Below, one piece after another: positions 34,415-35,335 of a DNA stretch of 64,000 nucleotides. Below the pieces are notes generated by a model. The model worked only from the letters and a program-made list of their open reading frames with translations. It did not search any database and was not told where the DNA came from. Location: assembly GCA_964422765.1 (NCBI GenBank), contig CAYRCI010000001.1, forward strand, positions 35,026 to 99,025, given 5' to 3'. Every line of letters begins with the position of its first letter. The stretch's first letter is position 1. Both the position numbers and the translations under genes were made by a program. This stretch comes from an uncultured Alphaproteobacteria bacterium. GTDB lineage: Bacteria; Pseudomonadota; Alphaproteobacteria; HIMB59.

Positions 34415-35335
34415 ATGAAAATAATTTTAATGGGACAACAAGCTTTTGGAAAAAGCACATTAGAAAAATTCCACACAGGTACAGACCATGAAGTTGTAGC
34501 TGTATACTGTGCCCCTGATAAAGAAGGCAAACCAGTTGATCCAGTCAAAGAATATGCTCAAAGCGTAGGACTTCCAGTATATCAACCTTCCAATTTCAAA
34601 GATAAAGAAGTTTTAGATCAAATAAGATCTCATGATGCCGATTTATGTGTAATGGCTTATGTAATTATTTTTGTTCCAGAAGAGGCAAGAGATATTCCAA
34701 AGCATGGATCTATTTGCTTTCACCCTTCTTTACTCCCCTTACACAGAGGACCAAGCTCTATTAACTGGCCAATTATTTGGGGATCAACTAAAACTGGTCT
34801 TACAATTTTCTACCCTAACGATGGATTAGATGAAGGGGAAGTATTGCTTCAAAAAGAAGTAGAAATTGGACCTGATGAAACTTTAGGCGATGTTTATTTC
34901 AATAAAATCTTCCCTCTTGGTGTGGATGCTTGTATTGAAGCTGCCGATCTAATTGCAGCTGGAAATGCACCTCGAGTTGCTCAAGACGAGTCTAAAGCAA
35001 CTTACGAGTCATGGTGTAAAAAAGCAGATGCTAAAATTGATTGGAAAAAGCCAGGAAAAGAAGTTTATAACCTGATCAGAGGCTGTAACCCACAACCAGG
35101 CGCATGGGCAGAGTTTTTAGGCGATGAATTCGTATTTTTAGACACAAAATTTGTTGAAGAACAAAGTGCAGAACATTTTCCTGGACAGATCATCTCAATT
35201 AACGCTGAGAACGTAAGAATAGCGGTAAAAGGTGGATTTATTGAGGTTTCTCGTTTTAAAACAAAAGACCAAGGTAAAACCTGGGTAAAAGATATGAATA
35301 CAGCAGTTATTACAGAGGGGGACTTATTTAGTTAA
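34415..35335 (+). CDS. Formyltransferase-fold protein, a stand-alone homologue of the N-terminal (hydrolase) domain of 10-formyltetrahydrofolate dehydrogenase / Fmt family
   Basis: [12 protein letters not shown]..., the catalytic-site pattern [27 protein letters not shown], the Asp in [14 protein letters not shown], and an Fmt-type C-terminal subdomain ([27 protein letters not shown]). There is no ALDH domain. Confidence 0.8.
   Translation: [306 protein letters not shown]

Follow-up and report, generated by a model that had tools for sequence, protein, structure and literature searches.

What is a stand-alone formyltransferase gene doing inside an oxalate gene cluster? The question is raised by a 64,000-nucleotide stretch of contig CAYRCI010000001.1 (GenBank assembly GCA_964422765.1), referred to below as the window, which has a GC content of 33.8% and comes from a marine alphaproteobacterium of the HIMB59/AEGEAN-169 type. 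Between frc, encoding formyl-CoA:oxalate CoA-transferase (CoA, coenzyme A), and nhaD, encoding a Na+/H+ antiporter, the window carries a gene for a 306-residue protein, here called the target, which resembles the N-terminal domain of 10-formyltetrahydrofolate dehydrogenase (FDH). Its sequence and its neighbours indicate that it probably moves a formyl group between folate and CoA. More specifically, we propose, with a probability of about one half, that it would be a folate-dependent formyltransferase using the free CoA thiol as its second substrate, and that its main task would be to supply formyl-CoA to the cycle formed by Frc and a thiamine pyrophosphate (TPP)-dependent enzyme encoded upstream.

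The gene is real and conserved. Its frame is open only from position 34406 (frame scan of the window), so that the ATG at 34415 is the sole possible start codon. The original prediction, made from the DNA letters alone, placed the gene 25 nt after frc and 6 nt before nhaD, and both gaps are as it described; nhaD is probably co-transcribed with the target. It also described a protein having the Fmt/FDH-N pattern and no aldehyde dehydrogenase (ALDH) domain, and this too is borne out. The catalytic-region motif [27 protein letters not shown] lies at residues 97-123 and the downstream Asp-containing motif [13 protein letters not shown] at residues 136-148, while a Pfam scan of the 306 residues found no ALDH domain, only Formyl_trans_N (residues 1-161, 97.6 bits) and Formyl_trans_C (202-286, 64.4 bits). 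The identical protein is recorded in 89 blocks of the assembly collection, a 99% identical protein is found on one contig of a metagenome-assembled genome (MAG), and an 89% identical one in a HIMB59 MAG. No second Formyl_trans gene was found within the window. Promoter and terminator scans of the cluster gave counts no higher than shuffled sequence. A weak GC-containing hairpin with a T-rich tract (34378-34394, + strand) overlaps the frc stop codon; it does not rise above shuffled controls, and could attenuate read-through into the target.

The first step is to decide which family the protein belongs to. In a search of PDB sequences the best matches were FDH hydrolase domains, at 204-217 bits, with lower matches to Fmt (no more than 137 bits), ArnA (no more than 92), HypX (45) and PurU (21.6). 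The AlphaFold2 model of the target has a pLDDT of 91.4, and its top five Foldseek matches were all FDH hydrolase domains (best E 1.5e-34), followed by Fmt, ArnA and HypX (6j1f and 6j0p, E ~1e-17). By BLASTP the target is 42% identical to mammalian FDH-N over 254 residues and 38% identical to the best Fmt-type representative. This margin is modest, and the FDH-like placement therefore rests on motifs and on a tree as well as on scores. The tree was made by neighbour-joining only, from 42 sequences with 200 bootstraps; in 200/200 of these the Fmt-type proteins were split from an FDH-like group that includes the target, and inside which the eukaryotic FDH N-domains are monophyletic.

The motifs point the same way. 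Fmt has the same two-domain fold (TM-scores of 0.88-0.92 against the target), the HxSLLPxxRG motif and the catalytic His and Asp. However, all Fmt-type representatives carry an Asn two residues before the catalytic His, whereas the target has Cys101 in place of this catalytic Asn of the Fmt/GART triad, and all of 26 clade members have this cysteine. Compared with the insertion loop of Fmt (PDKPxGRGxKL...), that of the target is shortened by 5 residues and has no GRG, the target segment being [13 protein letters not shown]; we take this loop to be the basic N-domain insertion by which Fmt recognises initiator tRNA, as in E. coli Fmt. FDH likewise has no triad Asn and has the short loop. The charge of the C-terminal domain was tried as a test of tRNA binding and set aside, as it does not discriminate. 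The best NCBIfam match of the target is fmt, though under the cut-off of that equivalog (TIGR00460, 162.3 bits against 201.5; 167.5 for the orthologue in locus L001), and the PurN and ArnA models fall further short (46 bits against 150 and 120 against 777). The PDB search, Foldseek and the tree thus agree that the nearest homologues are FDH-N rather than Fmt, PurN, PurU or ArnA, as the original prediction had supposed, and no grouping with bona fide Fmt was seen. By sequence the target is a stand-alone homologue of the FDH N-domain; since it contains only the two Formyl_trans domains, with neither a carrier domain nor an ALDH domain, we do not call it an FDH.

What chemistry might such a domain carry out on its own? 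In FDH (ALDH1L1/L2; PDB 4qpd, 1s3i, 2bw0) the residues singled out in the zebrafish enzyme are Phe89, His106, Ser108, Arg114, Asp142 and Tyr200, of which His106 and Asp142 bind the formyl oxygen (PMC4388273). In the alignment these correspond to Phe86, His103, Ser105, Arg111, Asp139 and Tyr197 of the target, all invariant in the 26 clade members, which span 58-87% identity. The isolated FDH N-domain deformylates 10-formyltetrahydrofolate (10-formyl-THF) only in the presence of a thiol, β-mercaptoethanol in vitro, and in the full enzyme the attacking thiol is that of the 4'-phosphopantetheine arm (PMC4388273). The formyl acceptor in FDH is therefore a pantetheine thiol on a tethered arm, whereas the thiol predicted for the target is that of free CoA. 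The target also differs from FDH in being bacterial and in lying within an oxalate/formyl-CoA cluster, and in carrying Cys101 at a position usually occupied in FDH by Ile, Val or Ser. The codon of this cysteine is at 34715-34717, the residue lies next to the formyl-binding site, and it is invariant in the frc-linked clade. Cys101 was considered as an essential catalytic nucleophile and rejected, because Gln takes its place in other frc-linked subclades, and Ile, Val or Ser in FDH.

A second precedent is HypX (HoxX; PDB 6j0p and related structures), which functions in CO-ligand synthesis for [NiFe] hydrogenase. On the basis of crystal structures its N-domain has been proposed to transfer the formyl group of N10-formyl-THF to CoA, giving formyl-CoA (PMC6802093). 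This reaction is identical to the one proposed here; it was overlooked in the original prediction, which held that no enzyme with formyl-CoA/THF activity had been characterised. HypX was recovered by both the sequence and the structure searches, and has the fold and the His/Asp pair in common with the target. It is nevertheless only about 17% identical and has Asp at the triad Ser position. In addition, it is fused to an enoyl-CoA-hydratase-like domain, absent from the target, in which CoA stays bound as a cofactor and formyl-CoA is decarbonylated; HypX does not set formyl-CoA free as a metabolite. HypX occurs in a hyp gene context, whereas no hyp genes were found in the neighbourhoods of the target loci inspected. 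By analogy the target may act like the HypX N-domain, but it is no HypX.

The case for CoA, and the strongest evidence overall, comes from comparing the genes around the target. A scan of one genome per species identified 221 genomes with a relative of the target, from which the best 80 loci were kept. In 78 of the 78 loci with an upstream flank (52 HIMB59-type and 26 others), the gene immediately before the target, with the same orientation, is frc, and the Frc of the window is 76-98% identical to those of the related clusters. The gene directly downstream encodes formate-THF ligase (NF010030, 934 bits) in 26 of 26 non-HIMB59 loci and on 2 metagenome contigs, with gaps of 47-677 nt, and is usually followed by a Usp gene; the non-HIMB59 carriers comprise Hyphomicrobiales, Rhodospirillales, Limibaculum, Thermohalobaculum and Kiloniellaceae. 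A tie to the THF-linked one-carbon pool had been suggested originally, and the ligase genes bear it out. In the loci of the HIMB59 clade whose downstream genes were identified, the neighbour on that side is instead an antiporter: NhaD in six loci, counting that of the window, and an Mrp cluster in others. The Mrp cluster of locus L014 (8985-14289) comprises MnhE, MbhD/E, Oxidored_q2 and two Proton_antipo_M genes, checked with hidden Markov models, and locus L024 has similar open reading frames. A Na+/H+ antiporter could offset the proton consumption of oxalate decarboxylation, or could serve Na+-coupled uptake.

The linkage extends beyond close relatives. A search of 1.84 billion cluster representatives showed that stand-alone FDH-like proteins, 37-49% identical to the target, form a large family in bacteria. 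Eight gene contexts were looked up, seven of them for distant representatives (each a single contig) and one, P0078, within the target clade. Five of the eight contain frc and an Oxc-family enzyme, namely the target clade, P0121, P0123, P0128 and P0143. P0121 and P0123 form a sister clade (47-49% identity) with the gene order frc, transferase, ligase; P0128 is accompanied by Oxc (1006 bits) and Frc (718 bits); and P0143 by a fragment resembling Frc together with an Oxc-like enzyme that scores 553 bits (cut-off 557). Links to Oxc-family and Frc genes also occur in subclades that are 46% and 42% identical to the target. The co-occurrence with frc and oxc that the original prediction wished to see surveyed is therefore found both in close relatives and in more distant subclades. 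Among the stand-alone proteins in the tree, P0171 comes closest to eukaryotic FDH; it is paired with a PNPOx-like gene.

The enzyme encoded upstream of frc requires a correction. It had been taken to be oxalyl-CoA decarboxylase (Oxc), but it is a 2-hydroxyacyl-CoA-lyase-like TPP enzyme which falls under every NCBIfam cut-off: PRK05858 gives 481 bits against 587, 2-hydroxyacyl-CoA lyase (HACL) 353 against 600, and the oxc models 239-252 against 557 and 739, the lowest being the canonical TIGR03254 (239 against 739). Its best PDB matches are an actinobacterial HACL (7pt1, 261 bits) and HACL/HACS structures (8vz*). Relatives do contain canonical enzymes, with TIGR03254 scores of 1025 bits in locus L001 and 1006 bits in L098. 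Canonical Oxc precedes frc in 18 loci and the window-type enzyme does so in 56, the two being about 25% identical, and Frc, the target and the regulator are unchanged where one replaces the other. The frc linkage of the target thus outlasts the swap of canonical Oxc for a different TPP enzyme. Because these partners stay constant, the window-type enzyme most likely has the function of Oxc, or at the least yields formyl-CoA as well. It may represent a second oxalyl-CoA decarboxylase lineage, or else a lyase whose substrate is a different 2-hydroxy- or 2-oxoacyl-CoA.

With the folate-binding and catalytic residues kept, and the gene lying between those for Frc and, in relatives, formate-THF ligase, the simplest reading is that the target is a reversible 10-formyl-THF:CoA formyltransferase, which would catalyse 10-formyl-THF + CoA-SH <-> THF + formyl-CoA. 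If it works as the FDH N-domain does, Phe86 and Tyr197 would hold the folate, and His103 and Asp139, positioned by Ser105 and Arg111, would polarise the formyl carbonyl, after which the pantetheine thiol, which we infer to be that of CoA, would attack the formyl carbon. Produced alongside Frc and a TPP enzyme predicted to form formyl-CoA, the target would link the formyl-CoA of the cycle with the one-carbon units carried by folate. The formate-THF ligase that is adjacent in most relatives would extend this connection to formate and ATP, and the two enzymes together would act as a one-ATP "formyl-CoA synthetase" using formate, which is the cycle's own product. In HIMB59, where no ligase is adjacent, the housekeeping 10-formyl-THF pool could serve.

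Several points weigh against this proposal. Formyl transfer from 10-formyl-THF to CoA is estimated to be mildly uphill, so that the target alone would tend to drain formyl-CoA. Formate-THF ligase is adjacent in 0/52 loci of the HIMB59 clade, to which the window belongs. No CoA-related neighbour was found in three of the eight contexts (P0122, P0127 and P0171; loci L096, L097 and L099), mostly on short contigs. Finally, there is no recognisable nucleotide-binding site in the target for the ADP part of CoA, and HypX holds CoA mainly by the second domain that the target does not have (PMC6802093).

The most serious competitor, though still an unlikely one, has the same enzyme running from formyl-CoA to THF, with the 10-formyl-THF then feeding purines and formylmethionine or giving ATP through reversed formate-THF ligase. 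The chemistry is the same in both directions, and so are the homology and linkage evidence. Related marine bacteria run formate-THF ligase in the ATP-forming direction, the ligase adjoins in all 26 non-HIMB59 loci, and by estimate this is the energetically favourable direction. The stoichiometry, however, argues otherwise. Frc spends one formyl-CoA on each oxalate and the decarboxylase gives one back, and each formyl-CoA diverted to THF would have to be made good by another thioester or by ATP before the next oxalate can be activated, which pays back the gain and leaves no net ATP. The cluster has no second oxalate-activating enzyme. The ATP yield foreseen in the original prediction would therefore vanish, and the reverse direction appears to fit better. 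FDH and, as proposed, HypX also move the formyl group from folate to thiol, an analogy that favours supply.

We infer on these grounds that net flux runs towards formyl-CoA, and rank its supply above its drain to THF. The likeliest role of the target is then to start the cycle, to replace losses and to cover oxalyl-CoA that is drawn off. This is favoured because the formation of formyl-CoA in the cycle of Frc and decarboxylase exactly balances its consumption, and because formyl-CoA is labile, with a half-life of 1.9 h compared with 92 h for acetyl-CoA (PMC3720670). A comparable part, the priming of the Frc/Oxc cycle, has been proposed for E. coli YfdE, an acetyl-CoA:oxalate CoA-transferase (PMC3720670). 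The likeness is one of function only: YfdE is an unrelated family III CoA-transferase that uses acetyl-CoA and no folate. No second family III CoA-transferase was found in the window.

Two further explanations dispense with formyl-CoA and are improbable. The target could be a plain 10-formyl-THF hydrolase, a PurU-like deformylase that frees THF when high oxalate-derived formate ties up folate through the ligase. The conserved catalytic and folate-binding residues would suit this, and the isolated FDH N-domain does hydrolyse 10-formyl-THF in vitro, but that hydrolysis depends on added thiol (PMC4388273). The match to true PurU is marginal at 21.6 bits, a hydrolase beside formate-THF ligase would make an ATP-wasting futile cycle, and neither the frc adjacency in 78/78 loci nor the association of four separate subclades with Frc and Oxc-family genes would be explained. 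Alternatively the formyl group could go to another acceptor, such as the pantetheine arm of a carrier protein, some small thiol that is not CoA, or an amine whose genes lie elsewhere, with the frc linkage reflecting no more than shared regulation by formate or oxalate. The family does span tRNA, sugar-nucleotide and carrier-protein acceptors, and the three contexts that lack a CoA-transferase neighbour would fit; we nevertheless doubt it, as no carrier-protein, sugar-nucleotide or nonribosomal peptide synthetase gene was present in any sampled neighbourhood, and CoA is the sole thiol-bearing formyl carrier that the neighbours imply. Public sources label relatives as methionyl-tRNA formyltransferase, but that the target is this enzyme or its paralogue is very hard to credit: the shared two-domain architecture, the best NCBIfam match and the 38% identity to one Fmt-type protein are outweighed by the score below the equivalog cut-off, Cys101 for Asn, the shortened loop without GRG, the separation in every bootstrap and the constant place in an oxalate cluster.

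Table 1. Features of the oxalate cluster in the window, in order of position.
Feature	Coordinates	Strand	Evidence or predicted role
TctC-type periplasmic binding protein, tripartite tricarboxylate transporter	27623..28600	+	Pfam TctC 88.9 bits; predicted oxalate uptake
TctB small membrane subunit	28625..29146	+	Pfam TctB 75.9 bits
TctA large membrane subunit	29168..30691	+	Pfam TctA 481.6 bits
GntR/FCD-family transcription regulator	30720..31379	+	Pfam GntR + FCD
TPP-dependent enzyme, 2-hydroxyacyl-CoA lyase/oxalyl-CoA decarboxylase family, in the Oxc slot	31443..33119	+	Predicted formyl-CoA-forming decarboxylase or lyase
Formyl-CoA:oxalate CoA-transferase Frc	33142..34389	+	TIGR03253 705 bits, cut-off 504
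Shine-Dalgarno-like AAGGAG	34404..34409	+	5 nt before the target ATG; read from the sequence
Stand-alone FDH-N-like formyltransferase (target), 306 residues	34415..35335	+	Predicted 10-formyl-THF:CoA formyltransferase
NhaD Na+/H+ antiporter	35342..36652	+	NF038006 567 bits

The rest of the cluster is listed in Table 1. TctCBA accompanies nearly all related clusters, which suggests that it is an importer of the tripartite tricarboxylate transporter family for oxalate or a related acid; we know of no characterised importer of that family with such a substrate. The GntR/FCD regulator is kept ahead of the TPP enzyme in related loci. A Zn-ADH or quinone-oxidoreductase-like gene (26460-27434, - strand) is divergent from tctC, and its homologue adjoins the cluster in 11 of 30 non-HIMB59 loci; it was the only recurrent gene when neighbours were inspected for hints of oxalyl-CoA reduction or glyoxylate assimilation. 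No riboswitch or other known RNA was found in the window cluster or in eight related loci, and there was no ZTP or THF riboswitch before the ligase. Elsewhere in the window, a TPP riboswitch (RF00059, 75 bits, 42088-42188, + strand) lies directly upstream of a gene for an ABC-type solute-binding protein (42221-43192), which probably functions in thiamine uptake, and Rfam identified two tRNA genes (11275-11348 and 22074-22145, both + strand).

How much of this is new? The fold, the catalytic residues and thiol-directed formyl transfer are already known from FDH and HypX. What appears to be new is a stand-alone enzyme predicted to use free CoA, the constancy with which its gene occurs in oxalate clusters, and the conserved gene order frc-transferase-ligase. 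A full-text literature search found no description of a stand-alone formyl-CoA:THF formyltransferase, and the published metabolic reconstruction of the AEGEAN-169/HIMB59 clade does not mention oxalate use. To our knowledge there is no EC entry for formyl transfer between 10-formyl-THF and CoA.

Schemes of oxalate degradation in bacteria usually show two enzymes in a closed cycle, in which start-up and the upkeep of formyl-CoA are not settled. If the proposal is correct, a folate-to-CoA formyl shuttle would answer both across many alphaproteobacteria, including the abundant marine HIMB59/AEGEAN-169 bacteria, and the target would provide, for the first time, a direct enzymatic link between the two formyl carriers of the cell, 10-formyl-THF and formyl-CoA, with formyl-CoA set free as a product. 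At present, synthetic one-carbon pathways that run through formyl-CoA depend on engineered acyl-CoA synthetases, and the pair of ligase and transferase would then offer them a ready-made and cheaper activation of formate. A wider version of the proposal is more tentative, and we would put it at somewhat short of even odds: that Alphaproteobacteria convert formate to formyl-CoA at the cost of one ATP (to ADP) by means of the ligase and the target, feeding the Frc cycle, and that a CoA-dependent family of this kind was ancestral to the N-domain of animal ALDH1L1, in which a tethered arm came to replace CoA. In that case the bacterial proteins would hint at the origin of the thiol-dependent N-domain of human ALDH1L1.

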